Source: Blasia pusilla
Taxonomy: Eukaryota
Length of the DNA: 64,000 nucleotides
Assembly: GCA_050084515.1 (NCBI GenBank)
Contig: CM114271.1
Coordinates: 11,904,001-11,968,000 of the forward strand
Reading direction: 5' to 3'
Positions 4,831 through 32,986 of the stretch are shown in pieces. The notes beneath the pieces were generated by a model. The model saw only the letters and a program-made list of their open reading frames with translations, ran no database searches and was not told the origin of the DNA. Each line of letters begins with the position of its first letter. Within the stretch, counting starts at the first letter, position 1. A program made the translations under genes and the position numbers.

Positions 4831-6883
4831 CTAATCTGATTCTGAGTTATTAGAGTCTGAATCAACATCTTCTATCATATCGCATACATGGATTATTGGC
4901 ACATGTTGCACATCCACTCTAGCAGTTTCCATCTCTGCATCACTTAGGACTCTAGCTCCTAAGGTACTTGCATCTGGTAGATTCCCTGGTTCCATGCATG
5001 TGGCATGGAAGGTGGGCAAAACATTACAAGCTCCATCTAGCGACTCTAAGTCATCAAAATAAACTCTCCGAGCTCTAGCTTCCTTCCTCATTACCACTTT
5101 CCATCCTCCACCCTCATCGGCATCTCCATAAAACACTTGTTGCACTTGTGATGGGAAAACAAATGGCTGGTGATCTAATGGCTCGCATGACCTCAAGTTG
5201 GCCAACAGAAAACCCTCCTTATCTAATTTCATGGATCCTACTCTTGAATCCCAATTTGCTTTAACCCACCGCCCTCGCATTAGTATTATGGGTTGTTCTA
5301 CAACCCCATAATCAAGTAAGAGAATATCAATCAACACCCCAACGTATGAGTATAGACAATTCTGGTTGGAACTTTTTCATCAACAAATCTGCACTATTCC
5401 ACTATCATAAGTGGAGAAGGGTGTCGCACCACTTGGCCCTTCTACCTTGAAGTGGTTTCCGTAGGCTTTCATACTCTTGAATGACAATGCCCTACTATTA
5501 GGAGGTATAGCTAACGATAGTAGGTGAGCATCAGGATCTTTTGAGTTGTCAATTGCATCATGTGTAATGGCAAGGCGAATCCACTTTTCAAAAGGAATGT
5601 CTCTTGAACATGACTGATATTTCCTGTTCAATAACAATGTTAATGGTATTAGTACATTCTTTTGTATTTAATGTGTCAATACCAAAATAATATACACTTT
5701 GAGAGTCCGAATGTAATTCACATAACTATAACCTTGAAAAGCATATATTGGAGAGTTTTACCTTTGCCAATCAACCATGACCTCTGTATTATGCAACACA
5801 TAATGATGTGCTAAGTTGATCATTTCTCGCGAAAGTCAAACTGGAGTGCTTGCACCTTCTAGCTCCTCACCAACGACCCCCTCTTCCTCCCCATCATCCC
5901 ACACTCGCGTGCGCACGTCTTCAAACCTTTTCATATACTCAGTCACAAACCCTAATGCCTCGTCCTTCACATACCCTTCTCGCCATACACCCATCTGGTC
6001 TAGCTTTAGACCGTACATATTTCTTCATGTACCCCATATATCGCTCCATTGGATACATCCATCGACATGCTCTTGGCCCACACATGTCCAACTCTTCTCG
6101 ACATGAATCAACAAATGTGTCATCACGTCGAAGAAAGATGGAGGGAAGTGCATTTCAAACAGACAAAGGGTTATGGCAGTCTCTTCCAAGAGTTTGTCAA
6201 ATAAAGCTGGATCATACACCTTTGTACACACCATTCTAAAAATGCCGGATAATCTAATAACCACCATTCTCACGTGGTCTTTCAAAAGACCACGGATGCA
6301 ATAAGGAAGGACTTCTTTGAATGAAGACATGGTAATCATGTGATTTCATATTGCCCAATTTTCGATTAACCACATGCTTGGAGAGTTCTCCATAATATCC
6401 AGATGGCACTTTCAAGTTTTGAATCCTCGAAAGGAAAGTGTTCAAGTCATGGGGAGATAGACAATAATCAAAAACTGGTTTAAGCAAAACTTGGGGTTTA
6501 CTAGGATGGGGTTGCAACCACAAATGGGATCGAATCCCACGGGCCTCCAGATCTCTCCTTACTTTCACAGTATCTTTCACTCCAAATAAGGTCTTGACTA
6601 GATTCTCAACGATATTCTTCTCAACGTGCATTACATCTAACGTATGGCGTATAAGCAAATTCTGATTGTATCGTCAAGGAAGCATGGACATCTCACAACT
6701 TCAACATGATAGCTAATATTCACAATCAAATCAAACAAAAGCTATCCTCCTCTATAGCCACTATTTCATAACATAAAGAATGGATAATACAGAGAAGGAG
6801 CAGGATACTCGCCAATATGGCAACGAATATAGTATACTCAGCCTTTTCACCCCAGTTCTCTTGTAGGGATCAGTAGTTCTCAT
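4831..6883 (-). pseudogene. CACTA TnpD-type transposase, 3' part (Transposase_21 C-terminus, DUF4218- and DUF4216-like regions), disrupted and 5'-truncated
   Basis: Motifs GVKRLSILYSLPYW, intron, LIRHTLDVMHVEKN, KVPSGY, MKSHDYHV, FPPSFFDVMTHLLIH, EGYVKDEALGF, YDSGI, PFVFPSQVQQVFY and WKVV. Contains frameshifts. Confidence 0.9.
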
Positions 6884-6900
6884 GTGATAACTCCACAATT

Positions 6901-9713
6901 GTGGAGTTATCACATGGGGAGTATGCATTTGCCACAGTCATGCCGGCGAAGAAGGATATGTATGGCAATTGGACGGATAGGCGGATGTGTGGAGATTACC
7001 GTCCTATCAACCGACAGACGAGGTCAGATCGGTATGCCATGCCTACTCTTGAGGAGATCTTTGATGCGGTAGGGCATGCAAAGATCTTCAGTACTTTAGA
7101 TCTCCGTGTTGGCTATCATAAGCTTCCTATCAGGTTGGAGGACAGGAAGAAGACAGCATTTTGGGGGATAGATCGGTTCGGGAGAGATTGCTTGTATCAA
7201 TGGCGGTTCTTACCATTTGGGTTGAGGAACGTGCCTGCAGAGTTTCAGAGAGTGATGGATAGGATTCTGGTTGGCTTGAATTTTGTACGATGTTACATAG
7301 ATGATATTCTTATCTTCAGTTTCACGGTTGAGGAGCATGAGCGACACTTGGGGGAGGTGTTTGGGCGATTGCAGTTACATGGACTGAAGTTACATCCAGG
7401 CAAGTGCAGATTCTTTCAGGAGCAGATTGAGTACTTGGGACACACCATATATCCGAGTGGGTTAGGCATTCTGCAGACGAAGGTAGAGGCTATTACGTAG
7501 ATTCCACGCCCTACAGATGTGAGTCGAGTCCGAGCATTTCTTGGACTGGCGAACTTCTATCGACGGTATGTCAAGGGTTTTAGTGCGATCCCAAAGTCTT
7601 TGACCTTGTTGACGAGACTTGATCAGGTTTGGTTGTGGGGAGATGATCAAGAGCGAGCATTTCAAGAGCTCAAGGACACATTGACGTCCTCACCCATTTT
7701 ACAGAGACCGGTTAGGGATCGCCCATTCTAGTTACATACGGATTGGAGCATGTTGGGTCTAGGAGTAGTGCTTACTCAGAGGGATGACGAGGAGAGGGAG
7801 TTCATTGTGGCTGACACGAGCCGATCGAACAACATTGCAGAGGCGAAGTACAGCTCCTACGAGGGAGAGTGCTTGGCTGCAGTGTGGGCCATGGCACATT
7901 TTAGGTGCTATTTATTCGGCAACCCTTTCACACTTATTACTGATCATCAACCACATGGGCTCTATTACTACAGGAGTATGAGTTTGAGGTGGTTCATAGG
8001 CCAGGTTGGCTGAACCAGGATGTGGATGGGTTGAGTTGTAACCCATGTCCGAGTCAGAGAGACGACACATGAGCTCAATGGCACGGAGAGAGTGATGAGG
8101 AGATGGTGCCCGGTTGGCATGCATCTGCCTATCTTTGTTGGTTGACTATGGCAGGTCAGCCACAGGTGATGACTCCAGTGGTGGGGTTGGATGATGAGTC
8201 TTTGGATCCGGAGGTTAGTGAGGAGGCGACAGGTGGTCGTGATATCCATGACGACGTGGAGGTTGTGGAGTTCTTGTGCATTGGTGTCATTGCGAGTACA
8301 GTGAGTGCTAGGGAGCGAGATCGGATCCTACAGAGAGCCAAGAGGTTCAGGTGGGAGGGGACTCACATTTTGCGGGTATGGGGAGATGGTAGGATACAAG
8401 TGGTACCTTATCCTTCCCAGCAAGCACGTATAGTGCGACATGCCCATGAGGAGTTGGGACATTTTGGAGTAAAGCGTACTTAGAGCTTACTCCAGGTTTA
8501 GTATTGGTGGCACGGCATGCATACTGGGGTACAACAGTTTGTGGCCTGATGTATGGTATGTGACAGAGTGCGAGCATCCTTTAATGCTCCCACTCCGCAG
8601 TTACATCCTTTTCCGATTATGGGTTTAGGTTATCGGTGGAGTTTAGACTTTGCGGGACCTTTGCCATTGACAGGACATCTTCATAGGTACGTGTTGGCCA
8701 TGGTGGAGCATTTCTCCAAGTGGATAGAGTTGGTGGCACTACCAGACAAGGCAAGCAAGGGAACAACTTATGCATTTCTAGATGGTGTGCTTAGTCACTT
8801 TGGTGCACCGGCGGAGGTGTTGATTGACCAGGGTACCGAGTTCAGGGGAGAGTTTCAGGCCTTGTGTGATCAGGCGCTGATAGATCACCGCACCATGTCT
8901 AGAGATCATCCTGAGGCGGATGGGTTGGCGGAGAGAGTGGTACAGACGGTGAAGAGAGGATTGTACAAGTATGGCTTGCAGCGGGGACAGTTGAGGGAGT
9001 GGGACCTACAGTTGCCATGGTTGGCTATGGGTTATCGCTTTAGTCGGAAGGCATCCTTGGCATCATTTTCACCGTACTTTTTGCTCTTTGGGAGAGAGCC
9101 AGATTTACCTGCAAAGCAATTCGGCGTGACATGGCGGAGGTGTTAGATCTTGATGATCCAGATATGTGGGTACAAGCATGTTCTCAGAGGGGCAGAAGTT
9201 TTTCGTAGAGTTATGCCTATGGCCTTTGAGAACTTAGCTATTGCCCAACATAGAGATACATTGAGGTACGCGACCATTCGTGGAGGAGGTTATCGTCCAG
9301 GGATTAGGAGGTTTCATCCTAGAGATTATGTGTATTTACAGCAGGCGGCACCCACAACGCTAGATGTCACTGTAGGGCGCACGATCCTACGTGTGCGCGA
9401 GGTATTACCGACCGGAGTCCTCATGTTGGAGGGACGGGATGGTATGGTTTGGAAGGATCATGTGCGCAATTGTGCGCCATGTCATCTTCCGAACGTAGAT
9501 GAGATGGTGGATCCGAGCTTGGCAGTGGTACTTGCAGGCTTGAGGTGTATGTTGTGCGGATCTGCAAGGGGTGCAACCACCATGTTGGTATGTGATGGTT
9601 GTTCTCGAGGGTGGCATATGTCATGTCTTACCCCCCTCTTGATGTGGTTCCCACGGGACAATGGATGTGTTCGAGATGTGTATAGGGTAGTAGGTCATGT
9701 AAGAGAGATGTGA
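6901..9713 (+). pseudogene. pol: Gypsy pol (RT, RNase H, integrase, PHD finger) with stops and frameshifts
   Basis: ORF pieces 6901-7500, 7519-7731, 7750-8013, 8103-8483, 8553-9146 and 9150-9713. PHD signature CMLC...MLVCDGCSRGWHMSCLTP. Confidence 0.92.
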
Positions 9714-9763
9714 TATTTTCTATCTGGAGTTGGGGGGATCCAACTGCCAGCTAGGGGGGCGGT

Positions 9764-10401
9764 TGTGTGATCTCCATGTATATGTATGAGTTGATTTTTT
9801 GTACATGTGTGGATCAACCCGTGTGTGGGGAAGATCGATGTTGTGTGGTGTAGATGTGACGAGCGATGTATGTTGTGTAGCAATATGTATGCGCACGACA
9901 GTTGTCACATCTGAGTAGCCGATAGGCCGAGATCTATCGTGGATAGGACGTAGGAGCCAACGGATTATCTTGAATGTAAATTTGTCCCACGGTGTCGGAT
10001 GAGGTTGAGAATAGGTCCATTGTGTCAGGAACGTCGTTTCTGACAACTTTCATGTTAAGGTCTTTTACAACCGAATGACTTGTTGACCAGGTCACCCGCC
10101 CCTGGTAACCTGTGCGCGCAGGTTACCAAGGGGAGGGCTATTTTTAGGGGAAGAGCCTTTTGGCTCTTCCCAACCCTATATAAGAGAGTAAGATGGCTTT
10201 CCTAAGCCATCTTTCTCATGTTGGGCCGTTGGAGCACCTCCCTTGTATGTGTGTGAGCTAGGAGTTGTGTGATCTCCATGTATATGTATGAGTTGATTTT
10301 TGTACATATGTGGATCGACCCGTGTGTGGGGAAGATTGGTGTTGTATGGTGTATATGTGACGAGCGATGTATGTTGTGTAGCGATATGTATGCGCACGAC
10401 A
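9764..10401 (+). repeat. 3' LTR of Gypsy A, itself bounded by ~137-bp direct repeats (9764-9900, 10266-10401)
   Basis: Starts TG just after the PPT and ends CA. The two repeats are near-identical. TATA box (CTATATAAG) at ~10176-10184 lies between them. Confidence 0.75.
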
Positions 10402-10820: not shown

Positions 10821-11400
10821 TGTCGTGCGAATCCACATCGTCATACAACATACATCGCTGACATACCATACTCACATACATAAATAACATAGACGAGAGC
10901 ATACACAAACACAAGTGTATCACAACTGAAATCTGTGAAAGACCTACTGTCATAAAACACGTATAGAATCACATACAATCGAGCCAAACCCACTCCACGA
11001 TGGGAGAATCCAGGTCGAAGCTTGCGAGAACCACCATAGCCAAGAGCTCTACTCACTACCAAGGCTAACTCCCAACGCAACAGGCTCAACTCAAAGAACT
11101 AACTGTTCTTTGAATACACTCCACACTGTATCCTCCAACCTAAGGGCGGGCCCTATTGGAAAAGTCACCCTCAACATAGTAACCCCCAACCCTATGTTTG
11201 AAACCGCATCCCTATCTACACACCACGGCCCTACATAAGGTATGGCCTCTACTAACACACTATACTCTACGACATAATCCGTATGGTCATGACAGCTGTT
11301 GTGCGAATCCACATCGTCATACAACATACATCGCTGACATACCATACTCACATATATACATAACATAGACGAGAGCAAACACAAACAAAAGTGTACCACA
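10821..11400 (-). repeat. 3' LTR of Gypsy B, bounded by 104-bp direct repeats (10821-10924, 11297-11400)
   Basis: Begins TG after the minus-strand PPT TAGGGGGGCGAG and ends CA. Two near-identical 104-bp repeats flank a 372-bp core. Confidence 0.75.
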
Positions 11401-11575
11401 ACTCGCCCCCCTAAATGGCGGTTAGGTCCCTCTAACTCCTAGGTAGCCCTATACATCTACTACATGCTATACACTTTTGTGGGTGCACAAATTAGAAGGC
11501 CGGGTGCAAGGCTGCCCCATCGTTAGTCGCATATCTGTAATCCATATCATGCAAAGATCAAGTCATCTACCCCTC

Positions 11576-13351
11576 CTAAGAACATCTAGGACAAACCCAC
11601 CTTCCACTAGGAACAATATCCATATGTGGAGTCAAACACATCATGTGCCAATCCCTAGAACACCGATCACACACTAACATACGGGCTGCGTTACCAGCAG
11701 ACCCACACAACATGCGCCTCAAGCTAGCACGTATCATGGCTAAGCTTGGGTCAATAGTACCATCCATATTTTGAAGATGACATGGCGCACAATTAGGCAC
11801 ATGGTCCTTCCAAACAACTCTGTCATGACCCTCCAACATGAGAACTCTAGAAGCTAACATCTCTCGCACTCGTAAAATAGTGCGGCCTGCCGTCACATCC
11901 AACGTTGTCGGTGCAATCTGCTGCAAATAGACATAGTCCCCCACATGGAACCTACAAATTGATGGTCGATAACCTCCACCCCGAATGGTTGCATACCGCA
12001 ACCTATCCTTGTGTTGAGCAATGGCAAGATTCTCAAAGGTTGTTGGCATAACTCTCCGAAAGAGCTCTGCAAGCTGAGAACACACTCTCATCCACATCTC
12101 TAGGTCATCAAGGTTCACCACCTCACTAGACTCCCAACGAATTGCTGCAGGCAAGTCTGGATCTCGACCGTATAACAGAAAATAAGGTGAGAAGGAAGCC
12201 AAGGATGCTTGGCGACTGAACCTATACCCCATGGCTAACCATGGCAACTGAATATCCCTGTCTCCAAGATGCCCCTTCTGTAGACCATACTTGCGCAATG
12301 TCCTCTTTACCGTCTGAACCACACGCTCAGCCAAACCATCCACCTCTGGATGATCTTGAGACGTGGTCGGATGATCCATCAATGCCTTCTCACACAAGAC
12401 CTAAAACTCACTCTGAAACTCTGTATCCTGGTCGGTTAGCACTTCAGCTGGTGCACCAAAATGACTAAGCACTCTATCAAGAAACGCATACGCTGTTCCC
12501 TCACTTGCCTTGTCAAGTAATGCCACCAACTCAATCCACTTGGAGAAGTGCTCCACCATCACCAACACATATCGATGATGTCGTACAGTCAATGGTAACG
12601 GTCCCGCAAAGTCCACACTCCAACGGTAACCCAACCCCATAGTAGGCAAGGGGTGTAACTGTGGTGTAGGGGCATTGAATGATGCCCTCACCCGGTCACA
12701 AACGATACAACGTGACACCAACTTCTGCACCTGAGAATGCATGCCACGCCACCAATACTAGCCAAGGAGTAGGCTATACGTACGCATTACCCCAAAATGT
12801 CCCAACTCCTCATGGGCATGTCGCACAATGCGCTCTCTCTAAGCCAAATGCGGCACCACTCGTACTCTACCATCCTCCCACATACGGAGAATATGTGTTC
12901 CCTCCACTCGATACCTCCTAGCACGTTGAAGAACACGGTCTCGCTCCTTGGCACTCACTATGCATAACACCCTACTGGACCGTAGGAACTCCAACACCAA
13001 CGCATCATCATGAATATCACGCTGATCCGTACCATCATCTCCAACCTTAGGATCTGAAGGCTGGCCATCTACCCTCTGACTAGAGTAAGATGTCATGTGG
13101 ACCTCCATACTAGAGTCCACCCCTAACCAACATAAAAAGGCAGATGCATGCCAACTTGGCACCATCTCCTCATCAACCTTGCCATGCCATCTAGACCCAG
13201 TTGCATCCTCTTGGCTAGTACATGGGTTCCTACTCAACCCATCAGCATCGAGGTTGGCAACTCCATGTCTATCTACCACCTGGAAGTCATACTCCTGTAA
13301 GATAAGAGCCCACCGTGCAAGCTTCCGTGTAAGCTTGTCAGACTCCATCAA
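11576..13351 (-). pseudogene. Gypsy B RNase H C-terminus, integrase and PHD finger
   Basis: LARWALILQEYDF, ADGLSR, WSVDFAGP, TDQDTEF, DGLAER; PHD MLC...MLVCDRCSRDWHMMCLTP...WVCPRC. Confidence 0.92.
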
Positions 13352-14232
13352 CCACTTGAGCGGCTGGTGATCAGTAACAAGGATAAACTATGTGCCAAAC
13401 AAGACACATGACCCAAGTACTCAACATCCTCATGGAGGAACTTACACTTTCCTAGATGCAAATGTAGACCATGAGCTTTCAACCGCTCAAACACAATCTG
13501 CAAATGTATCTGATGCTCCTCCACCGTGTTACTGAACACGAAGATATCATCAATGTAACACCAAAAAAAATCCAACCCTGCTAGGATCCTGTCCATCACT
13601 CTCTGAAACTCGGCAGGTGTATTCTTCAACCCCAAGGGTAAGAATTTCCATTGGTACAAAAAATTCTTGCCATGAGAGTTGACACCCCAAAATGTTGTCT
13701 TGGCCTTGTAACTCTCTCGAATCGGCAACTCATGGTATCCTGCCCGAAGATCCAAAGTACTGAAAATCTTTGCTTGTCCCACCACATCAAAGATCTCCTC
13801 AGGTGTAGGCATGGCATACCTATCGGCCTTGGTCTGCCAATTGATAGGACGGTAATCTCCACACATCCGCCTATCCGTGTAGTTGCCATGCACATCCTTT
13901 TTAGCAGACATGACTCTGGCTGATGCATACTCTCCATGTGACAACTCCACTAATCCAGCCTCCAAAAGGTTCAACGTCCTACTGTGAATCAGGTCCCTCT
14001 CCATATCACTATATCCGTAGGGACGATGGAAGATTGGCGTATCACTAGCCAAATCAATCCGTATACCAGGTCCAACCAAAGCACCCAACTCCTTCATGCT
14101 AAAGGCAAAACAAATCCTATAAGCACGTAGGAAGTGTGTCAAGCGTCGTTTCTCACCTCCCGTAAGCTTGGGCCCAAGTAATGGCTCCCAAGTCTCCTCC
14201 ACTGGCACACTAGAGGGAGAAGACAATGCCAT
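13348..14232 (-). pseudogene. Gypsy B reverse transcriptase; most of the connection/RNase H region deleted near 13405
   Basis: MCGDYRPIN, TLDLRAGYH, LKNTPAEFQR, YIDD. YLGH is fused directly to the TDHQP region, and the sequence equivalent to ~7445-7910 of Gypsy A is absent. Confidence 0.92.
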
Positions 14233-15764
14233 TGGCTGTTTTCAACCCCCTCACAAGATGGTACACCCTTAGCTACACCATCATCTGAGCAAATAACTCC
14301 TCCACCAGCATGAGCAACCAACTCCACATGCCCGGCCATTACATCCCATTTACTCCAAGGATGCAAAATACTACTCTCCTCGCCCCCAGCCGATGCCTCT
14401 ACCGTCCTGGTAGCCATCGAGCTCATCACAAGGGGTGGAAGACCCCCAGACATAGTCCAAAGCCGACGCTGCTCGGCCATACCAAGACTCAAAATCCAGG
14501 TCAAACAATTCAGGTCCATGGCTTGACCCAACACATGACGTCGTGAAGCCTCAGAAATTGAAGCAACCGCTATCACACCAGTAGCAAACCCCATCGCACG
14601 CTCTCTCTCATCAGCGTTAGGCTCCACCAACTATCGCACATGAGAATCCCATAAAAGCCCGGGACCACCTTCCCTGTAGGCATGTGACGAGGGAAAACTC
14701 ACAAATGTGGGTAGTGCCATCCTAGGGTGCCCCACACGGTTCACCACTGCCATGGGTGACCGATCAATAACCCTCACCACCTAAGAAAGTCACCCAGTAT
14801 CCAAGATACTATCCACTGTAAGGCAAGGATCCCACTGCATTGCATCATATGCTCGACGTAGAATCTCCCTAGGCAACAAGTTTATCCACCACAAGCGTGG
14901 ATGATGTGCACGTGAGCCAACTTGCGTTGCATCCAACAACACCGCTGGTCCAATCCAAGACCGCACCTCATGAACACTCGCCATCATCCGGGTCCGAGTG
15001 TCACCCAACAATGGAACATTCTCCAGAATGTAAGGTGGAGCACTTGCCTGATGAACCTGAAGATGTCGTAACACACGCAACATCTCCCAAAACAATCGAG
15101 ACCTAGGGTCATGTAATCCCTCACCACGACCAGCACGTGTATGACCTTGACATGGCCATCCTGCAATCACCAAATCCACGGGACCAACCCTCTCAAGGTC
15201 CTGTGCTCCCAACAATGCAATGTGTGACGGAAAATTACGTTGGTACCCACGAATAGCTGATGGTGGCAACAACTCAGGATATCTCCGCATCAACTGACCA
15301 ATATGTCGAGATGAGACTCTCTGGGCCGTCTCATCTCGCTCCACATACCCGTATCTCCGCACATGAATACCGGCCTGCAACACTGTAGCCAAACCAGTGT
15401 TAATCCCACCAAAGAGATCTAACACACAAATGCCCTCCAGCGGATACTGCCATACAATGGGTGTAGTATCCAAAGGGGACAACCCAACTGGACCAGAAGT
15501 AGGAGTCCACCGTGGAGCCTCCTCTTCCTTGTGAGGTATAACAGCCTCATACCAAGCCTCCTGCACTAGGCGGTCAGCCTCCTGCCATAGTGCACCGCTT
15601 GAACTCCAAAGTGGCACATCCAACGATGAGGATACCACTGCTAAAAAACTAGGGATCTCCTCTACCTCCTCATGCACAGGAGAATCCATAGCAGAAAGGT
15701 TACCCTCCAACAAGTCTCCTGGCCAAGTGACTATTCCACTAAAACCAGCCACAAATGCTAACAC
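14139..15764 (-). pseudogene. C5-cytosine DNA methyltransferase domain (DNMT3/Dcm-like) embedded in the Gypsy polyprotein
   Basis: Motif I VLDLFGGI, II YVERD, IV DLVIAGWPCQG (catalytic PC), RSRLFWE, VI ILENV, VIII AHHPRLWW, IX ERERAMGF and X RHVLGQAMDL. In-frame stops near 14790 and 14632. Confidence 0.9.
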
Positions 15765-16192
15765 TGTTGGAGAAGAGGTGCGGTAAGAGGAGAGGAAGAG
15801 AGGAAGAGAGGAGAGAGGAAGAGAAGAGAGAGGAGAGAGGAAACTACCTTCAACTGAAATAGATACTTTTTTTTAAGAGAGTTTCCGTTGGGTTGAAGAG
15901 AGGAAATTTTTTGTTTGAATTTTTTTGCACTTTTTTGTTCATATATTAAGCAGTCCCACAGTTTTTTTTTCCTCTTCCATATTTTGGCAACCCCTCTGAG
16001 TCCGACGAGTTGCAAATTGCACAAAATTTAGAAAACTGAAAAATCAGTGGAATCATAAGTGTGGAACCAATCACTTTTTCCATCCAAGGTTTGGAAAAAA
16101 TCTGTCATTTTCCCAACGCTGAATAGAGTTCAAGCTCAAAGTGAAGGTTGAGAAAAAAATAAAAGTACAATCTAAAACCTCATTTTGCATCC

Positions 16193-19100
16193 TCAAAGTG
16201 GTTTGTTTAAAATACTTCGAACTTCTTTGAGGGACAGAATTGGTTGGTGGATTCCTCCTCCTACCTCCGACTCTCTTAAAACTACCAGCAACACATAGTA
16301 CATATGCTTACAAGGGAAATACCTTTTGCCACTTGTCTCTCTTTGAACAAAGTCATCACATGAACATGTGGGAAAGCAACAGATGTGCACCACATACACC
16401 CCTATGACACTTGAATTTACAGTGTTGTTCCTGACCCAATACATCCTTCCTATTCCATTGCCACTCAAGACATCTTTCGTGGCGATGATCTCCATTTTTG
16501 CCTCCCGAGCTGATGCAATTCTCTTTGCTCTCTCCACCGTTGGCCTGCACATTTTGTTTCTCTTCACCCCATTTCTAGACTCAAACAGAAATAATGGATT
16601 GAGATCATCCACCTTCTCCGGGTACATGTTGACATCAATCTTGGGTTGAATACAAAATGCGAAGGTCTCTGTAATGCGAACATGGTCAAAACTTCCCCCG
16701 TCTACGAGTCTGAAACCGGCACTTGTAAGATTGTCCACTTCGTCTTGAGTGCAGTTTGTACCTGCGGCGATGGGCCAAATTGTGGGGGTATTCCCAGGAG
16801 CTCCAATGGCAGCCGGATAAGACTTCCGGAAAGCGCAAGATTCATTTGGGCAGAAGAAGTACTTCAATTGATCCCCGGTCCTCGTGAAACGATCAAAGGT
16901 TTTGAGTCCCCAAAACCCAGGCGGTGGTCGTCGATCCTTATGCTGATTCTTATTTAGGAAAGTGCCGCATGCTCTCCTAATGCCATCAGATCCTGCCCTG
17001 CAGGTGGATCCACGTCCTGGGTTGCTCTGAGATATATGCCACCATTTTAGGTTGCAATCCACCTCCATTACCAGAATCCCATATTGTTGAACCAACCCAG
17101 TGACAGGATGTTGCGAACTTCCAGCCACGGAGGGCTTTTGAAATAAAACATTCACTAATTTTGGAGAAGTAACTCCATCACAGATTTGGGACGGGTCCGG
17201 GGTCCCCAAATACCTGGGCGGTGTAATTTCCTCATCCAAATCAATCACGGATTTGTTCCTCGATCTTTGCCTCTTCACGCTGAAGTCAAGATACTTATCT
17301 GGTCTCCACGAGTCTCGCTCGGACTGCTCTACCACCATCCGTATGGGACGTCTTGAAACCCGCCCACGAATATCCCCACCAATGTGTACGTCTTGCTCGA
17401 GTGGAGTTCCAGCTACGCACCGGTTGAAGGCTTCCACATACATTTTTTCATCACCAGATCTCACAGCCGTCCTGACATAGAGCTCGTAGATCGACGACCC
17501 CTTTCCTTTTGTTATGCCTTTTGTGAAGAAGATATGGGATGCTGGAGACTGTAGCATTGCTCTTGCCTGGTCTTGTTGGCATGCCTCCACAAGTGAAATT
17601 CATTGGCATGCTTGTGACGACCTCCAGGAGGAATGAACACTTTCTGCTCCACTTGTGTTGGGGCAGAGGGCATTTTCATGAACGTTCAATCCCTGAAACG
17701 ACGGCAATGTTAGAAGGGAACAAAAATAACTCATGAGTCAAAGAAATAAGCAACCTGTCGGAACCACACGGGTTGCAGGCCCGAGGCATCCCATGAACGA
17801 CTCTGCGACCCGACGGAACCCGACGTGTTGTAACCTTAAACCCACCTACTGCAACCCGTCGGAACCCGACGGGTTGCAAGGCGGAGGCATCCGATGAACG
17901 ACTCTGTGACCGGTCGGGTCCCGACGGGTTGCACACTTGGGTTGCACCAAATATCTAGATGCAACCCGTCGGTTTCCGTCGGGTTGCACACTCGGGCAAC
18001 CCGTCGCATCCGACAACTTGCTTGGTTTCTTGGGTTTGAAATCCATATAGTTCCCACGCTTCTCACCCTGAGCTACAACTTTACAAACAATTCTCAGCGT
18101 GAGCTTGACAAGACAAAATAGTGAACTCACCTGCCGCATGAAGTTTCCCCATTGTCTCATACGTCTGATCCACCAACTCAACCAAGAGCACAACTCTTTG
18201 TACTTCCCCTCAATCGCATGCTTCCTCCACCACCCATGAAGTTCTTCCTGGCATTCCATGGCTTTGCTTCAAGGTTTTTTGTCCTTGCGGCGTTGGAGTA
18301 GAGTGACATGCTCTGTCCTCTTATTCACCTTGATGCAAGATTTGGTGTACCGGGTCACAGATTGTTGCCAATGGAAAGCATCCGACCTTTCCCTCTCCGG
18401 TTGAACCTCTCCACCCCATAACACTTCCCGGATTGCAATCCACCCAGGTTGTGCATAGTCCGCCATGAACCCATAAATTTCCGGAGGTGGCCTTTTGTTT
18501 TCCTTCACCACCTCCAATAAGAGTAACCAACACATCTTCAAACTGCCAACGTCTTCTGCCTTTACTTCACAAACAAATATAGTTTTGAGTCCCTTCTCCA
18601 CATGGTCATAAACGTGAGCACCCATCGTCAACCATCCGTTCAGCACTCTGTAGCAAATATCAAAGCTTACCCAGCTCTCGTAAAGATCTTCCCCTTCCCT
18701 CATTCGATCTATAAGATCGAGGCCACTCGACGGACCTGTGGTTGACATTTTGAAGACATAGGCCCTGGATCCCTTGCCTCCTTAGCCCATGAACTGCCAT
18801 CTCTGAATGAATGGAAATCTGGAGTTGGCCTTGATTCTGGTGATGGCATCCATTTCGGCCGTCTTTCCATCCAGAACTCGTATTTGACGCAGCAAATTCC
18901 GGAAGCATTCAGGATCAGCGAGAAATGTGAGATTTTCCCAGAGTTGTTTCTCCTCAACCGCCGTGATCTCGCCCTGTCCAGGGATTCCAAGCAATTGTTC
19001 ACAAATTTGTGATGCCGTTGTGAGCTTGATCACTCCGGGCTTTGAACCCGGAGAGTTTCTGTAGACCTCGGCTACTTTCTTCGCCACATCCTTCTTGATG

Positions 19101-20141
19101 TGTCTTCGAATTGCATCGGTCATAGGATGAGTGTGGGAGCCAACATGAACTGCCAGCCTTGTATACTCTGACGTGGAGCCCAAGTCGTGGACAATGAAAA
19201 ATATGTATGCAGGACACGCTCCAACGCACAAGGGCAATGCTTGACAATGAGGACATCGATGGCCTCCCGGCGGTATGGTGGCACCGACCTCGTATGGAGT
19301 TTCTGCATTCTTGGGAGGGAATTGCGACGTATTGACTCGCCCGTTGCGCTCTAGATACCGGCATGCTGGACTTCTACACTCCAAGGCTCCCACGCATTGG
19401 CGGCGGGAGACAATCCACGGACCATCTGGAATGGAAGCACTGGTCCGTTGAAGCCTGCACCAACGATGACAATCGGACTTTTGTCCATATCCTTCAGCGT
19501 CCTCCATCCTTCTTTTGAGCGGGAGCGGCAAGTGGAGGCAACTCAAAAATGCAATTACCATCAAATGCGTGGGCGGCGACTTGTCGACAAGAATGTGCTT
19601 GAACATTTTCAAGCCGAGACGAAAGCAAACTAATGCCGATACTCGCAAGAGAACAGTAGGCGGACGAGAGGTCCCGATTGGTGTCCGCCAGATCCACGAG
19701 GTTGATAACATCCGAAATCTCTTGGGAAGAACAACATTATTCTGGCGCGTGGAAGTTGGAGTCGGCCGGATCTCGCAGAGCTTGGAGTTGCAAACGTAGA
19801 GCTCGGAGCACTAGGAAATTCTAGACCGTCTACTTGGGAAACAGACGATTTAAGTCGAGGGGCGGGCCGTAAACTCTATATTGACCATTTGCTAGAGGTA
19901 GGAGATTCCATACTTTACGGTCTAAGGTCCTTTGGCTGGACCGTCTCACCTATTATGTCTTCCGTGCCGTCCACCCTAACATCTTTGGATACAAAGATGG
20001 TTCCAATTGGAGAAGAAATCGAAGCATGAGAAAATTTTCATCCTTTGCTATGAAAGACTCACGAGCTTGGGGTCGAATGATTTCCGATTGAGGAAGGGCC
20101 GCCAGATGACTGCCACAAGTGAGCTTAACATAATTATCCAT
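16193..20141 (-). pseudogene. Transposase: GCM-like zinc/WRKY-fold N-terminus, MULE-type DDE core, C-terminal SWIM finger; one intron (17693-18130)
   Basis: C-VGALE-C-x4-C...C-x2-C...C...HVGSHTHP. WVSFD, FMAD and DAFHWQQ, then after splicing (CAG|GTGAGT...TTTCAG|GGA) PNTSGAESVH. SWIM CSCDDF...PCKH. Contains premature stops and a frameshift. Confidence 0.8.
17750..18020. repeat. Palindrome cluster in the transposase intron
   Basis: About 6 copies, e.g. perfect 13-bp arms TGCAACCCGTCGG-AAC-CCGACGGGTTGCA at 17850-17878. Confidence 0.85.
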
Positions 20142-20192
20142 TCCAAGAGGATTCCAACGGGAGGAGACTGAGAATGAGAATGAGAAATTTTA

Positions 20193-20199
20193 ATTTATA
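20193..20199 (-). promoter_or_regulatory. Putative TATA box of the transposase
   Basis: TATAAAT ~50-85 bp upstream of ATGGATAATTATG, conserved in all three copies (also 51808-51814 and 61704-61710). Confidence 0.5.
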
Positions 20200-20339
20200 G
20201 TGAATAGGAAAATAGATACTCTTGACAGATTTTTACTGACAAGATGAATTCGGTGGGTGACATTGTCTGACACAATGGATCCAATTCTGTAACACATTCA
20301 ATTATGTTGCAATATGTTACCGGATTTGGGAAGCAGAGG

Positions 20340-21020
20340 GTTGCGCATCACACTTGGAACCCGTCGGAGTCCTGGTAACTCAAAACTTACCCGAAGCTAA
20401 CCAAAGCATGCAACCCGTCGGCTTCGGACGGGTTGCACGCTTTTGCCAAACATTGTCAAAGCGAGCAACCGGTCGCTCTCCGACGAGTTGCTCGGATACC
20501 GCTCCTTCTTGCCTGAAGATGCCAGAGGCGTGCAAACCATTTGTTCCCGACGAGTTCCGCGGGTGCCTCACCTATTTGCCCAAAGACGGCGAGGCGTGCA
20601 ACCCGTCGCCCTCCAACGGGTTGCGCAAGGGCCTCGCCTTGTGGTGCAGCCAGCCGGACTCCGACGACTTGCACGGGAAGCCCGCGTTCTTAACCCTTGA
20701 TGAGGGAAGCGTGCAACCCAACGGTCTCCGACGGATTGCCCAAGATACGTCCCGTTCCCGTCCTAAACACGGCGGAGGCGCGCAACATGTCGGTCTCTGA
20801 CGGGTTGCGCGGGTACCTCGCGTTCTTTTCCGAAGATGACAGAGGCTCAACCCGTCGGTCTCCGACGGGTTGCTCGCCCATGTGGCGACGTACCCACGAT
20901 GGCGGAGGCGCGCAACCTGTCGAACTCCGACGCGTTGCCATTTTTCACGTCCGGACTTCCGTAACCTCCGGCACGTCGCCGTCGAAAGAACGACGGGACC
21001 CAACGGTCAGTCCAACGGCT
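20340..21020. repeat. Palindrome array in the divergent intergenic region of copy 1
   Basis: About 11 degenerate CAACCCGTCGG-N3-CCGACGGGTTG copies at roughly 55-70 bp spacing. Confidence 0.8.
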
Positions 21021-21027
21021 AGAAAAG

Positions 21028-21035
21028 TATAAATA
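21028..21035 (+). promoter_or_regulatory. Putative TATA box of the cargo gene
   Basis: TATAAATA immediately after the palindrome array, ~290 bp upstream of the MTRKK start. Confidence 0.4.
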
Positions 21036-22529
21036 GGGCAGAAATCGCTCATTTCCGGTTTCTCATTTTGCGATCTTCATTCCTCACTCTCCCGCTTTGG
21101 TGAGCCGATCGATCTGAAGGCGTTTCACACGGCGACACATCGCGAGTCGATAGGAGGAATGAGAGCGAGGCAGTTCGATCGAGCAATGAGACAGTTTGGT
21201 GAACGATCGCGGGACGATTCGAGCTACCCATCAAGGCGATTCAAGCTCCCCATCTCGACATCAGTAAGGCGACTGATCAAGGGATTCGTCGTGGACATAG
21301 ATGGAGGCATTTCCGAAAAAAATGACGAGGAAAAAATCACAAGCCAACAAGTCTGGGAGCTTCACTCCGAAGTCCATTAGGACTCCTGCGTCAGCATCTT
21401 TTGGGCCTCGTTCGGCGAATGAAATTAGGCAGTAGGAAATCAAGGAGGGGGAAAGGGAAGCGGAGATGCACAACCAAGTGCTTCTTGCGAGACGTGTTCA
21501 AGAGGCGCTAGATAAACAGAACGCAGAGGCTGAGACGTCGCGTCGCAGGCCTTGAAGAAAAGGATCGCCGACGAAAAGAGAGAAAAGAAGCGTCTGGACG
21601 CGTCGGTGAGGAGGGCAGAATTGGCTAAAGCGAGGAGGGAAAAAGAAATAGCCATTGACGATAGCCTTGCCCGTCCAACCGCAAGTGTTGAGATGCGGGA
21701 AATGTCCCCCATGAAGGCCGGGGACACAATCAACATAGTGGAAACGCGAGAAGTTGAAATCGATGACGACGAGGTCATGAGGACCGCCAGCGTGGAGATG
21801 GTGGACATGGCCGAAGAAACCGGAGAGCGGTCATTCTCGACTCCAAGCCCGGCGGAGGACATCGACCTCTATCGGATCGACGAGTTCCCAGTCGATTTGC
21901 CAACTTCTATCTCAGACAAGTTAGCTGGTCAAGAAACCGACCCCATTTTCGAGCGGGTAAGAGAGGATCTGGGTTTTCTCAATTATGTGAATTGCAATTC
22001 ATTGGGAATTGATGTAGCTTATTCATCTTGTCCCGGTTCGACGGGTGGTAAAGCGGATGGCACTCATGGAGGGCCTGGCGCGCCGAGGATTCCACTCTAC
22101 CGATTGTGGACAATGGAATGCGTCCGTGAAATTCAGATCCGCGAGGACATCGAAAGCTTAAACAATCGGCGGCAACAAAGACATCCACGTCGATGCTTTC
22201 CTCCCTTCTATGTTCAGCCTTACGACGAGCATGGAACCCAAGCTCTGGTTACGGAGGAGGACTTGGAAAAGCTCGACACATTCTGGAGGATGCGAGACCA
22301 GGATTTCAGAAGGCAAGTTAAGGGCACGGAATTCAGTGGATGAGGAATCGCATTTCTTCATCTGGGATGGAAATCAGGAGTTCATGGCGTGGACCAAGTT
22401 TTGGAGGAGCGGCCCAACTCATTGGAGGCACATTTTGCGTGAAGGAGTGGTCCTTCACCCATTCCCTCATCACATGGCGGCGGTGGAGATGGCAATGCAT
22501 GCCATGAACACGTGAGTATCTTTAACACT

Positions 22530-23250
22530 TACGCAACTCGTCGGGGCGGTTGTTGGGATGCTTTAACACTTACGCCTTTCGTCGGACTCCGGCGAGTTGC
22601 TCGATTGATGAATGGGTTAGGTTTGTTTTGCGAAAGCAACTCGTCGGACTCGGCGGGTTGCTTGACTCCATGCTTTTTTGGATGTTTTTTTAAGAATGCA
22701 ACTCGTCGGACTCCAACGAGTTGTTCGATTGACCACAGATTTAATTAGTTTTTGGCCCAAAGCAAACCGTCAAAGTCCGACGGGTTGCTCGACTCGCCGC
22801 CTTGTCAGGATGTTTTTTGAAGAATGCAACTCGTCGGACTCGACGAGTTGTTCGAAATAACTCGAGTTTAGAAGGTTTTTCCCCAAAGCAACCCGTCGAG
22901 TCCGACGGGTTGCTTGCCTCGAAACTATTTTTGGCCGAAATCAACCCGTCAGAGTCCGACGGGTTGCATTCGGAAGTTGGTTCCCCAAATTTTGCGTCAA
23001 ATTGCAAGTTTACATTCAATTGCGCAACCTGTCGGATTCCGACGGGTTGCTATGTTCACGTTAGTATGTTCAGTTGCACAACCCGTCGGAGTCCAACGGG
23101 TTGAAACCAGGCATTAGCAAATCTGAATGCAATCCGTCGGACTCTGACGGGTTGCATCATTTAGCTCGTTGCTAGAATCCGACCTTGAGCTGTGACGACC
23201 CGTCGGAGTCCGACGGGTTGCAGGAACCCATGTAATTTCCTGACGGGTTG
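22530..23250. repeat. Palindrome array in cargo-gene intron 1 (62-64 bp period in part)
   Basis: Units start at 22637, 22699, 22763, 22827 and 22889, with further copies to ~23250. Confidence 0.85.
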
Positions 23251-25394
23251 AGTTTGGATGTGCAGGATTGTATCGGAGGGGAATGTCACCCACCACTGGA
23301 TCTAGGACTGCGATCGGGTGAGGCCCACAATTTCAAGGATACTGGTAATTTTCCCCACGTACCTGCATTCTTACACTGGACGAGGTACCTGAAGACCATC
23401 TGTTGGGCAGCTTTTAGTCGAACGGAATCGGCCGTCTGCTCCTGTAGATCTCGCTTCTTCTTCGCTTGATCCCATTTGTTCCCCTCTACTTCTTCGTCAA
23501 GCTCTGCCTGAGGGAGGACGCAAACCTTGAACATGGTCTTGAATCCTGGGTTTTTGGTTGGCTTGTCCCGGATGTCGTTGAGCCAAACCTCGAAATCTCC
23601 AGAACTTTCAAGGTTTGCTTCATCCGGGATGGGCTCTAATCTTCTGAGCTCCACTTGCAGACCGTCCAACACGGACTTCCTGATAACCCGCAACCCGTCC
23701 CAGAACGACCATTCGCGTAGCCAGTGGGAGATCAATGGATCAGACACACCCGGAGGATGGTGTGTCGCCCTCTTCTGGGCCTCTGAGCCCTCAAGACTGA
23801 TTTTCATCAATCGGATCCTCCTAAACTCGCTTATGCCGGACAACGCAAACCGATGCACGCGATCCAAGGACACTTTCTCCCCAATCCGACCATGCGGATC
23901 TTCATCCCTTTTCCGCTGGCGCTTGATAATCGCCTTCAGCTCCTTGTAGAACTCCGGACCAAGTTCGGGGTTGAGAATGCTGATGTATCGCTGCATCTTG
24001 CTCGCCGTGTATTTTGTTGCTGCAGCTTGGATGAATTTGGCGCGCTCAGACGCAGATACCCTCTCCCTCCGCTCCAGCTCCAGTGCAGCGCTTTTCTTCG
24101 CGGCCTGTATCTTCGACCAACAAAGGATGGTTACGGGTGCATCTTGGGAAATAAACTTATTTGCCCAAGTTTTCTTTTTAATCTGAGCACCCTTTGCAAG
24201 CATCTGATTGACAAGGGCATCGCCCAAGAACCCCCTGTACTCTCCCGGGTGCGTCGTAAGCACCTTCGCCGCCGGATGCAGAGACATTCTCCATGTACGA
24301 TATGGAGATGGGGCAGCACATGTTTGATTGGGAGGTGGAGAATTGCCCCATTTGGCTCGACTTCAACGACCCTGAAGACATCACCAATAAGGATTTACGA
24401 GTGCTTCATGATGCAGTGGCCTCAGGACAAGACGACATCCCCAATTTCGTCCAGCCTGAAGACTTCTTTGGAGGAGATGCAGAGGAGCAGGCCCACAAGA
24501 CAGCTGAGTTGGCTTCCAAGGTCCGCACAGCCAAAGACAAATCCACAGCGGGTCTCAAAGGCAAGGCGAGGGGAGGGAAAAATTCAGAGGCCGAGTCTTC
24601 CCAAAGAGAGGCTGAAGATTCAAGGCCAGAGGCGGAATCGTCGAGCGGCGGGAGAGAGGGTCGGACCAAGTCTCGGCAAAAAAAAAAACCCCACCGAGTG
24701 TGAGGTCATAGAGACCCCGACAAGCCGTCCGCAGACTCGGGAGAAGCGGAAGCGAGAGGTGCCAGGGTTGTCCCAAGGAGAATACAGTCCATCATCCTTG
24801 GGAAGACACATAAAAACAACGACCCAGACAAGCGTCCTCCTTTAGTTCACTCCTTTACTGGATGAGCTGAAGAGCTTCAGTTCTCAAGCGTCGACTCCAG
24901 CCATCGATAAATTGACAACGTTGGGACGGAAGCTCCAACGAAATGGGCACGCTGCCTGGACGGTGAATGGAGTGGTCGAAGAGGTTGCGGTGGATCTCTT
25001 GATCGCTGATCTGCCCTCGGGGTTGCGACTTTGGGGCAAGAATCCGTCGGACGAGGTACTTGAGTGGAATGTGCCACTCTCTTATGACCAGATTGCGCTA
25101 TTGTTCTCCTTTGCAGACGCCAATCTAAGTGACAGGGGCTGCTTCTTGGTGTTGACTGGAGGGAGCGAGGATGAGCTCTTCAACCTCCAGTGCGTCAAGA
25201 GGTCGCTAAAGTGGAGGACGGCGCAATCATGGATCATAAAAAATGAGTACCCACTCCGATCCGCAACGAGTCAGATTCGGATAAGGCTCAATTCCTGTAC
25301 TATAATTTCAATTATATTTTAATGATGTGTATAATGAGTGTTCATCTCCGTCGAGTGATTATAATGAGTGTCAATCTCCATTTTTTTTGTCCGT

Positions 25395-25760
25395 GAGCAA
25401 TCCGTCGGAAGGCGGGGTTCTTGGCTTAGAGCAGCCCATGCTCGGTGAGCAACCGTCGATTTCCGGACGGGTTGCATCTTTCCACATACAGGGAAAACCG
25501 CGGTGTACTTGCAACTGTGGGAACCCGGCGGGTTGCGCTTGCTTTTGGTTTTTCCTGTGTTTCGAAAAAGCCGCAACCCGTCGATAGCGGCGGGTTGCTC
25601 GGCGAGCATGGGCTGCTCTAGGCAAGCAACCCGTCGCCTTCCGACGGGTTGCTCACGGACAAAAACAACGGAGCCCGACGGGTTGTTTTAGTCACGACCA
25701 ACCCGCCGGAAGGCGACGGGTTGGTCGGGACAAAACAACCCGCCGGACTCCGGCTGAGTT
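25395..25760. repeat. Palindrome array in cargo-gene intron 2
   Basis: About 8 copies, e.g. GCAACCCGTCGCCTTCCGACGGGTTGC near 25626. Confidence 0.8.
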
Positions 25761-28130
25761 GATCCAAAGTCGTAATGGTGAAAATGTTCTCAAGCCGACT
25801 TCTTTAGTTCTTGACATTGTTTCCAACGTGTTGATTTCTGAGATGGACACTCCTACGTCTTTCGCCCGTTCGCCCGAGCACAATTTCGGTGTTCAAGATC
25901 CAGGATCTGTGGATCCATGCTCGATGGGTACACTTAGATAGTTTGTACAATTCCCGGAATTTACATGCAAGACAAGATACCCTTACTTCTGGGAGGAAGG
26001 GAAAAGTTTCAGCCCGATGCAACGCTCATCGAGCTCTGCTCAAGGCCGGGTGACTTGGTGTTCGACTTAGTGGGACTTTCGAGGGCAAGTATCAAAGGCG
26101 CTGGCAGAGTGGCAGAACATTCTGCCTCGAGGAAGGCAGAAACTGTTTGACCTTTGCAAGGAGGCAAAGGCATAATACGAAAGGCTCGTTGGGGCGTACA
26201 ACTCTCCACCGAAGCTGAGAGCTCCGGTTCCAGACCCACCCTTGGTAGTGACTCCATCGTCACTTCCAACGATTCCAAAAATCGGGAGGGCAAGGCCGAA
26301 AGTAATTTTGCAAGAGCTCTCGGACGATGACGAGTGAGTTCAAAGAACTCAAGGACCCAACTTGACTGCAGCGTTTGGAGTAGGAAGCTATTTGATGATG
26401 AGGCAAAAGATTTCATAGAATAGATCAAATGTACAGTTCCGAGCTTTTTTCGGATGATATAAAGGAGATGATTTTTTCGAACGATGGTGGTGCTTGTAAA
26501 AATTTGCTTAACAATTTTTTTCTTTTCGAATGCGATCGTCTATGAACTCCGCGGACTTCTATTTTGCAAACCGTCGGATTTCTCCTGCTTGCAAGTTTTC
26601 ACTTTTTGACGACAGCACCTTTTTACCACTTCCAGGCAACCTGTCGGATTCCGACAAGTTGCCTGATCGGACTCTTTCCCTGTTGGTCCAACTTAAGAGG
26701 TAGTCTGGCAGGCTTCTTCCCTTGGCACCTTCCCCTCAACTCGTAAAGGCAGGCGTAGGCTTCTTTTCTTCTCTCAGACGTGTTGGATTCCTACTACCTG
26801 TGCGATTGCCATAATGGTATTACCGGGGACAGAGCACATATTGATACTGGATGGGTGTCACATTGCAGAGCGTACAAGGTATACTGCCGAGGAAGGCGGT
26901 GGGACTCGAATCAGGTAACATGGGACCGTTATGGTGTACCTAGGGGGGGGCCAAGGCTCTCGAATTCGCCAACATTTTCGATCCCCGTCTATAATCAGCC
27001 AAAGGAGCCACTTGTATCCCAGGACATTCCTTTGGTATTGTCACCAAGGATAGTTAGGAGTAAATTTGTAGATGACGAGGCTGAAGAAATCATAGACTAG
27101 GTCAAATGTACATTTCCAAAGTTCCTTCAGAGGTAATAAAGGACGAGTTTTTTCAACCCATAATGGTGTTTGTAAAAGTTTGCTCGAATATTTTTTTGGA
27201 CTTGTGGATTGTGTTCTTTTAGCTACTCAGAATTACAATTCTGCAACCCGTATGATTTCGACGGGTTGCAACTTTTTGCTTTTTGCCCACTGTAACTTTT
27301 TTTTTTACCATTTCGGGCAAGTCGCCGATTCCGATAGGTTGACTGCTTGAGTGATCGGACTCTATCCCGGTGAGACCAACTTCTGACGCATTGTGCGGCC
27401 CTCTTAACTTTTGGCTCGTTCCCCTATATTCGCCAAACCAGTTGTAGGCTTCTTTTCTTGTCTAAGATGTGCATGATTCCTTCTACCTGTCGGATTGCCA
27501 TTCCGGATTCCCAACCTGTTAGATCGTCGTGGGTGCAGGGTGGAAGAAAATCACTTCTAAAAATCTTTCCTTTCTTATGGTGAGCTTTCTTACGGGTTGG
27601 GAGGGGTGCAGCTTCTCGGTTTCTCAGCCTTAGGATCTGATGTGTTCACATTTCACAAAGTTGGTCTTGAGCAGACACCATTCATAACCAAGTTATGAAT
27701 AGATATGGGGCAATTACGGGGCAATTTAGGGGAGGCCATGATGCAAGCAACAATCCCTGCAAAAAGAAAGGTTGGCATCCGGGTGGTCCTCCAACAAAAA
27801 TACCAAGGGCACTGCTTTTTCTTGACCGAGACAGGGAATGTTAAGAAACTTAGGCTCACATGGAGAGTGATGGAAAAATGTTTGTAGTGGTCTTATGATG
27901 TCTCCTTTTTTCTCACCCCCATGAAAGAGAAGGTTTTTTTAGGGCCAAATGTGGACCACTAAATACTCTCTTTTAAAGATTTCATGAATTTGAAAGCAAA
28001 CAAAAATTTCAAATATGTCAAAAATTTTGAAGAGAGGAGGCGGATTTGGCCCTTTTTTTTTAAGAGAGACTCTCCTCTCTTCCTCTCTTCCTCTCCTCTC
28101 TTACTCTCTCCTGCCAGAATACCAGCCCCC

Positions 28131-32951: not shown

Positions 32952-32968
32952 TATAGCAAGAAACTTTT

Positions 32969-32986
32969 TGGCGTCGCTGCCGGGGA
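32969..32986 (+). promoter_or_regulatory. Primer-binding site (Athila-type TGGCGCCGTTGCCGGGGA-like, tRNA-Asp)
   Basis: TGGCGTCGCTGCCGGGGA downstream of the 5' LTR. Confidence 0.65.

Follow-up and report, generated by a model that had tools for sequence, protein, structure and literature searches.

Evidence for a bryophyte family of Gypsy-type retrotransposons with a Dnmt3-type DNA methyltransferase in the polyprotein

Why a retrotransposon should encode an enzyme that normally serves to silence it is a puzzle. Such elements have been documented from just two hosts, a dinoflagellate and a charophyte alga, neither of which lends itself readily to manipulation. According to de Mendoza et al. 2018 (PMC5890265), KnitGypsy-Dnmt3 of the charophyte Klebsormidium nitens is an intronless Gypsy-type element whose polyprotein includes a non-rearranged Dnmt3-type DNA methyltransferase (DNMT) under purifying selection (Ka/Ks < 0.2), and it combines Gypsy domain content with repeats in the layout A-coding-B-A-B that is typical of DIRS elements. 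SymbioDIRS-Dnmt3 of the dinoflagellate Symbiodinium has the same repeats and a Dnmt3 in its Pol polyprotein, together with a tyrosine recombinase (PMC5890265). The species table of that 2018 survey does not include Marchantia, a 2025 paper mentions retrotransposons with embedded DNMT3s “in streptophytes and dinoflagellates” solely by citing that survey (PMC12344493), and our literature searches yielded no description of a retrotransposon with a DNMT from Marchantia or another land plant (the supplements of both papers may bear on this point). Here, we analyze a stretch of 64,000 nucleotides from Blasia pusilla (NCBI GenBank assembly GCA_050084515.1, contig CM114271.1, positions 11,904,001 to 11,968,000 of the forward strand), termed the window below and numbered from its first letter. 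On its minus strand lies an element that is very probably a decayed copy of a bryophyte (liverwort and moss) family of Gypsy-type retrotransposons with a Dnmt3-type DNMT in the polyprotein.

We hold with similar confidence that the parts of this family are ordered as repeat A, open reading frame 1 (ORF1; Gag with CCHC knuckles, aspartic protease, and Dnmt3-type DNMT), ORF2 (reverse transcriptase [RT], RNase H, DDE integrase, and PHD finger), and a terminal B-A-B block. The parts of the window copy are as follows, from 5′ to 3′ on the minus strand, where numbers beginning with L (L001 to L078) denote metagenome loci and those beginning with P denote library proteins.

28131..30466, minus strand: first part of ORF1, with Gag (two CCHC-like knuckles) and aspartic protease (DSG motif), in a single frame with 7 in-frame stops
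28131..28141, unstranded: target-site duplication, copy 2
15777..28130, unstranded: DNA transposon with terminal inverted repeats (TIRs), 12,354 bp, in the linker between protease and DNMT, with one end fixed by comparison with a second copy
15766..15776, unstranded: target-site duplication, copy 1, 11 nt, 9 of 11 identical to copy 2
14244..15765, minus strand: second part of ORF1, with linker, Dnmt3-type DNMT (core at about 14463-15440), and C-terminal tail, placed by PF00145, PDB matches, and the alignment of P0152
14790-14792, 14781-14783, and 14631-14633, minus strand: in-frame stops of the DNMT part
14242..14244, minus strand: TGA ending the frame just upstream of ORF2, one codon ahead of the conserved UAG site of the relatives
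13405..14241, minus strand: RT of ORF2 (RVT_1), to which residues 22-285 of the L032 ORF2 align, with 0 stops
11579..13402, minus strand: rest of ORF2, in another frame, with C-terminal RNase H, DDE integrase, and PHD finger (about 11582-11710), and 4 in-frame stops
11297..11403, minus strand: repeat B1 of the 3′ B-A-B block, 94.4% identical to 10821-10927
10928..11296, minus strand: repeat A2, in which 11113-10934 is matched at 77% by repeat A1 of L002 (8665-8835)
10821..10927, minus strand: repeat B2, the 107-nt repeat shared with B1 and the 3′ end of the element

The methyltransferase is confirmed. The Pfam search that the original prediction, made from the sequence of this stretch, had proposed returned DNA_methylase (PF00145) for the minus-strand ORF 14790-15872, which scored 40.4 bits (cut-off, 22; E = 3.1e-10); the same match is obtained when 14244-15782 (minus strand) is read in one frame of 513 residues with its three stops as X, and relatives score 35 to 51 bits. 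The main motifs stand in canonical order with the catalytic PC kept, as had been predicted: FGG (motif I), PCQ (IV), ENV (VI), SRAH..RLWW (VIII), and ERERAMGF plus GQAMD (X), an order that also emerges from alignment to DNMT3A. All 29 diverse family members compared keep the catalytic Cys of PCQ and the Glu of ENV, and when the Arg of motif VIII is included, all three residues are invariant or nearly so in sets of 29 to 38 diverse members.

Comparison with proteins of known structure places the domain near DNMT3. When P0152, an intact protein of Marchantia polymorpha, was compared with PDB sequences, 25 of its 27 matches at an E value of ≤0.01 were DNMT3A, 3B, or 3C (best, 1.7e-8), and a profile built from 38 family members matched DNMT3A (1.2e-26), DRM (4.5e-15), M.HhaI (7e-10), and DNMT2 (7e-5) and left DNMT1 unmatched among the PDB sequences. 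An AlphaFold model of the DNMT domain of L002, a close relative, has a mean predicted local distance difference test score (pLDDT) of 83.8 and a predicted template modeling score (pTM) of 0.80, and in a Foldseek search with this model, all of the listed top 50 ranks were DNMT3A, 3B, or 3C (target-normalized template modeling score of about 0.8; E values down to 2.9e-20). The ESM Atlas yielded generic DNA-methylase clusters only, the first of them mostly from Streptophyta. A Pfam scan (E ≤ 0.001) of P0152 and its kin found PF00145 and neither PWWP nor ADD, and the motifs are not rearranged, unlike those of DRM. Because of these profile, PDB, and fold matches, the unrearranged motifs, and the lack of PWWP and ADD, the domain is best regarded as a predicted catalytic domain of the Dnmt3 type that lacks the reader modules of the cellular enzymes, an assignment made by profile and fold comparison. 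It has the catalytic fold and motifs in common with cellular DNMT3A/3B and plant DRM2 and differs from these enzymes in its embedding within a retroelement polyprotein, as well as in the missing modules and the motif order just described.

The surroundings of the domain are those of a Gypsy-type element. On the same strand, RVT_1 matches at 13348-14241 (minus strand; E = 1.3e-29), the rest of ORF2 has Pfam matches to RT_RNaseH, Integrase_H2C2, rve, and PHD, and the protease region and Gag lie upstream of the DNMT, past the long insertion. The original prediction that the DNMT lies on the same strand as, and between, protease (28131-28573) and RT (13348-14232) is therefore upheld by the Pfam matches to DNMT and RT and by collinearity with P0152. 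The element and its relatives show the order protease-RT-RNase H-DDE integrase of the Ty3/Gypsy elements (Metaviridae), and the DNMT gene has no introns. No tyrosine recombinase of the type that marks the DIRS order was found, the integrase being of the rve plus Integrase_H2C2 kind.

The integrity of ORF1 across the insertion was assessed with P0152 (1278 amino acids [aa]), which aligns to the window by tblastn in just two collinear pieces: residues 1-778 correspond to 30466-28103 (62% identity), and residues 766-1271 correspond to 15776-14238 (67% identity). Excision of 12,365 nt (15766-28130, comprising the transposon and one 11-nt copy of the duplication) joins ...GSSPR to VLAFVAGF... and restores the frame, exactly as foreseen for the removal of a 12.4-kb insertion, and P0152 reads ...GSSPA VLASIAGF... 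at the homologous place. A further copy of the inserted transposon lies in inverted orientation at about 51.8-64 kb; comparison of the two fixes one end of the insertion at 28130, and a perfect 30-nt inverted repeat occurs near both of its ends. With TIRs and a target-site duplication within the 9 to 11 bp of Mutator-like elements, the insertion is probably Mutator-like, a classification by its ends and target duplication only; the ORF at 16193-17599 has a SWIM match below the cut-off (E = 0.036), and the 8 ORFs scanned in the insertion gave no other Pfam match.

The original label of Ty3/Gypsy retrotransposon stands with regard to domain content but needs refinement with regard to the ends, which are split direct repeats of the form A-coding-B-A-B and not long terminal repeats (LTRs). 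No LTR pair surrounds the DNMT element within the window; instead, the 107-nt B repeat occurs twice just past the integrase, 476 nt apart. Similarity to L002 ends at 30653, and the 5′ repeat A1 was absent from the window when sought upstream of gag and beyond the neighboring LTR element. The complete series A1-coding-B1-A2-B2 is present in 7 loci (L038, L039, L042, L053, L063, L070, and L078). The family combines features of two retroelement orders, namely, a Gypsy pol with DDE integrase and the split repeats of DIRS elements. As a separate observation, these 7 loci are full-length relatives of 9 to 12 kb in which DIRS-type repeats occur together with a DDE integrase.

Set against the described systems, the element most resembles KnitGypsy-Dnmt3, with which it shares a non-rearranged Dnmt3-type DNMT within the polyprotein, the lack of introns, the A-coding-B-A-B repeats alongside Gypsy domain content, and purifying selection of like strength (Ka/Ks of <0.2 in PMC5890265 and dN/dS of about 0.2 here). 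The two differ in their hosts, an alga and a land plant, and possibly in the site of the DNMT, which here closes ORF1, after the protease and ahead of the RT, and is followed by a leaky-type stop; no protein named as from K. nitens appeared among the organism-named matches of our sequence and profile searches. SymbioDIRS-Dnmt3 is similar in its Dnmt3 within Pol and in its repeats but has a tyrosine recombinase (PMC5890265) where the present family has a DDE integrase (rve) and a Gypsy-type RT-RNase H. Both of these hosts had been named in the original prediction, in keeping with the same paper. Chromoviruses (Gypsy elements with a chromodomain on the integrase) resemble our family in the order of the Gypsy pol domains and in having an integrase that ends in a chromatin reader, but the reader of our family is a PHD finger rather than a chromodomain, and the family has no LTRs; PHD fingers in retrotransposons were already known (PMC6673714).

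To place the DNMT among its relatives, we searched 1.84 billion representative proteins exhaustively with HMMER. The window DNMT is far beyond chance, since 3158 proteins match at an E value of ≤1e-3 and 225 match at ≤1e-30. A Pfam scan detected retroelement domains in 22 of 27 long library matches, with the DNMT between RNase H and integrase in 19 of them and between protease and RT in 3 (P0019, P0020, and P0025). The organism-named search gave 28 matches, of which 15 are from M. polymorpha (61 to 71% identity), one is from Sphagnum fallax (55%), and the rest belong to unnamed contigs; the order gag-protease-DNMT is common to all 15 M. polymorpha proteins. Overall, 182 proteins have a DNMT match, which follows the RT in 60, precedes it in 15, and occurs with no RT in 107. 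A metagenome scan added 221 confirmed relatives, from which 79 loci were retained, and one of these (L002) aligns with the window element from end to end, DNMT included, at a nucleotide identity of 75 to 80%. Among sequencing runs, none contained half or more of the words searched for (best share, 0.46).

Phylogenetic analysis of 139 DNMT domains (FastTree; the tree is unrooted and without cellular DNMT3) puts the two layouts on opposite sides of one branch, with 60 and 8 labeled rows and a support of 99, and groups the window DNMT with L002 and Marchantia proteins (support of 98 to 100). Elements of the layout RT-RNase H-DNMT-integrase-PHD, such as the Haematococcus lacustris polyprotein QJQ45_013313 (P0300), which was found by profile search, have a Dnmt3-type homologue (30 to 40% identity), Gypsy pol domains, and a C-terminal PHD, as does our family, but their DNMT lies between RNase H and integrase and falls on the other side of that branch. 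Because the domain is carried by the 15 M. polymorpha proteins, the Sphagnum protein, and the 221 metagenome relatives, its sequence distribution indicates that it is a family trait rather than a one-off capture. The original prediction had named the lack of a DNMT in other family members as grounds for abandoning it, and had held that a land-plant host would extend the known range; the DNMT in fact occurs throughout the family, and the range is extended by relatives in M. polymorpha and Sphagnum fallax, the best matches being from liverworts. For an unrelated integrase in the window, likewise, all 12 organism-named proteins among the 120 matches listed are from liverworts (Calypogeia, Marchantia, and Riccia; 47 to 65% identity).

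Rates of nonsynonymous and synonymous substitution (dN and dS) were estimated by the method of Nei and Gojobori, with pairs of saturated or near-zero dS dropped and stop codons skipped. Between the window and its relatives, the DNMT core has a dN/dS of 0.18 to 0.27 in 14 of 15 pairs (dS of 0.70 to 0.91), the 15th pair, with L025, giving 0.11 at a saturated dS, and the RT has a dN/dS of 0.12 to 0.20 (7 pairs). Comparisons of the decayed metagenome copies with one another give a median DNMT value of 0.47, in line with the expectation for neutral decay after insertion. To judge from these substitution patterns, the DNMT is under purifying selection and is a conserved part of the polyprotein family-wide.

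The arrangement of DNMT and RT is best seen at the junction of the two ORFs. The C terminus of the DNMT and the start of ORF2 could both be placed in 58 loci and lie in the same frame in 41, which comprise 17 with a single in-frame stop directly before ORF2, 15 with an open junction, and 9 with scattered stops. Of the 19 loci closest to the window, 16 have a TAG stop and 3 have a TAA stop, and CAA is the next codon in all of them. One locus, L032, is fully open, with an ORF1 of 1369 aa (protease and DNMT), the codons TAG CAG TTA, and an ORF2 of 1047 aa (RT, RNase H, integrase, and PHD), and the protein P0020 has DNMT and RT in one ORF with no stop. In the distant branch, the DNMT is fused to the RT, whereas in the closest relatives it ends ORF1, and one in-frame UAG, with CAA next, precedes the RT. 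The possibility, raised as a potential refutation, that the DNMT is out of frame with pol in intact copies is not borne out by the 41 loci, the intact L032, or the single-ORF P0020. The expectation of an uninterrupted gag-protease-DNMT-RT ORF, by comparison, holds for P0020 and the 15 open junctions but fails in the closest relatives, with their one in-frame stop.

The codon CAA or CAG followed by a pyrimidine-rich codon resembles CAR-YYA, which we take to be the context of leaky UAG codons in plant viruses. About 10 nt past the stop, a pyrimidine/purine stem is predicted, with 94.8% of cells paired and compensatory changes in 7 pairs, where shuffles give 3.5 ± 1.5 such pairs and 10 of 500 reach 7, figures that are to be read in light of the relatedness of the sequences and the derivation of the structure from the same sequences. 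In the window itself, the stop position is altered and ORF1 is offset by one frame from ORF2, because small changes near 14240 lost the arrangement of the relatives. A programmed −1 frameshift (the RT being in the −1 frame) was considered for the window and rejected, as the relatives have DNMT and RT in one frame with an in-frame stop. The conserved stop context, ATG, and stem are located at the junctions of L001-L034, L065, and L075 (for example, L002 13841-13969) and at 14118-14246 in the window.

These features suggest how the enzyme might be deployed. ORF1 would be the abundant product, with translation mostly stopping after the DNMT, and occasional read-through of the stop, as its context suggests, would produce a Gag-protease-DNMT-RT-RNase H-integrase polyprotein. 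Because the DNMT ends the abundant ORF1 product, it would enter the virus-like particle with Gag, where the protease would free it; the freed DNMT might then methylate the new cDNA or the new insertion of the element de novo, and the PHD finger of the integrase would read histone tails and guide integration. Such self-methylation of cDNA, proposed here from sequence, would match by analogy the yeast experiments of de Mendoza et al. 2018 (PMC5890265), in which retrotransposon DNMTs, among them those of K. nitens, carried out de novo CG methylation. The full proposal is that liverworts (including M. polymorpha) and mosses harbor an unreported, possibly active Gypsy lineage with DIRS-like repeats that packages a working Dnmt3 at Gag stoichiometry, encoded upstream of a leaky UAG, and methylates its own cDNA; as a whole, we put it forward tentatively and think it less likely than not to hold.

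Several observations weigh against our account of the family and its mechanism. The likeness to KnitGypsy-Dnmt3 is drawn from the text of PMC5890265 and not from a sequence comparison, and the best organism-named matches are only 55 to 71% identical. The protease ORF of the window has no Pfam match of its own at an E value of ≤0.01 (Asp_protease matches occur at the homologous place in P0025, P0171, P0175, and L032). The window copy is dead and cannot function because it has 14 in-frame stops (7 in Gag-protease, 3 in the DNMT, and 4 in RNase H-integrase), two frame breaks (one where ORF1 meets ORF2 and one between RT and RNase H), a deletion of the 453 bp that in L002 (14683-15136) connect RT and RNase H, the 12.35-kb insertion, and no 5′ repeat. 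Finally, the window and most of the 19 closest loci have an in-frame ATG two codons past the stop (stop-CAA-CCC-ATG), which also allows for re-initiation in place of read-through: ORF2 could be reached by termination and re-initiation at this ATG, or from a separate transcript, with DNMT and RT never forming one polyprotein. We consider this route unlikely, given that L032 has no ATG near its stop but has CAG-TTA as its next codons (of the CAR-YYA type), that the stop is absent from the 15 open junctions of the distant branch and from P0020, and that the predicted stem past the stop is conserved. In known LTR elements, moreover, the RT needs fusion to Gag for packaging.

Two further readings concern the DNMT itself. 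It could be a fragment of a host DNMT3 lodged between two retrotransposon fragments, through a one-off capture or a chimera of assembly or annotation, as might be supposed for a copy with stops and frame breaks in a region that is a mosaic of nested transposons. This reading is refuted by collinearity and family-wide presence, and we give it hardly any credence: the same gag-protease-DNMT order recurs in the 15 M. polymorpha proteins, the intact L032, P0020, and dozens of loci, L002 matches the element from end to end, and the DNMT gene is intronless. Alternatively, the enzyme may be kept for something other than its own cDNA, acting on host chromatin or rival transposons once released, or serving as a non-catalytic binder of DNA or chromatin or a DNMT3L-like regulatory partner. 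The role of the DNMTs in such retrotransposons is called unclear in PMC5890265, so this alternative deserves to be taken seriously, doubtful as we find it. Because the catalytic Cys, the ENV Glu, and the motif VIII Arg are kept and dN/dS is about 0.2, a working enzyme is favored over a DNMT3L-like shell, and placement of the DNMT in the Gag-protease ORF favors packaging beside the cDNA over other substrates.

If the proposed lineage with a packaged, working Dnmt3 is real, no earlier DNA methyltransferase encoded by a transposon would be known from land plants, and the host is one in which the idea is open to genetic testing. With a multicopy family in liverworts and a moss, the question can be asked in land plants, and intact ORF1 proteins are annotated in M. 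polymorpha, a model species for which transformation, CRISPR, and methylome resources are available and which could show self-methylation of cDNA, the preferred sequence context, and the effect on the host methylome. The position of the DNMT ahead of a stop resembling the leaky stops of plant viruses bears on enzyme dosage and packaging.

A second, 5′-truncated member of the family lies nearby on the opposite strand.

6877..10401, plus strand: second family member, with RT-RNase H-integrase-PHD at 6877-9713, B1 at 9762-9900, A2 at 9901-10263, and B2 at 10264-10401

It is 74 to 76% identical in nucleotides to 11697-13954, has Pfam matches to RVT_1 and PHD, and is cut within the RT, so that the stretch in which a DNMT could have lain is missing. 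The two family members stand 3′ end to 3′ end, about 420 bp apart (10401-10821), a spacing that may be due to chance or to integration targeted, for instance, by the PHD finger. At 4831-6673 (minus strand), a piece of a tnp2/CACTA-like transposase (DUF4218, with DUF4216 below the cut-off) abuts this second member at 6877.

Just upstream of the truncated 5′ end of the DNMT element sits a separate Gypsy-type LTR retrotransposon at 31950-43210 (plus strand), with 1-kb LTRs that are 96.7% identical, gag, RT, RNase H, and an open integrase ORF of 445 aa; a third LTR-like copy (77% identical) occupies 37368-38276, between its RT and integrase. The two inverted copies of the large TIR transposon (15777-28130 and about 51800-64000) are 76 to 91% identical in pieces and have GA-rich inverted repeats; the second copy is rearranged near 51800-53012 and runs past the end of the window, and internal tandem arrays of 64 to 67 bp are located at 58724-59043 and 60671-61322. 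At 46080-46284, there is a perfect GA-rich microsatellite of about 200 bp with a 6-nt register, which translates as (RE)n.

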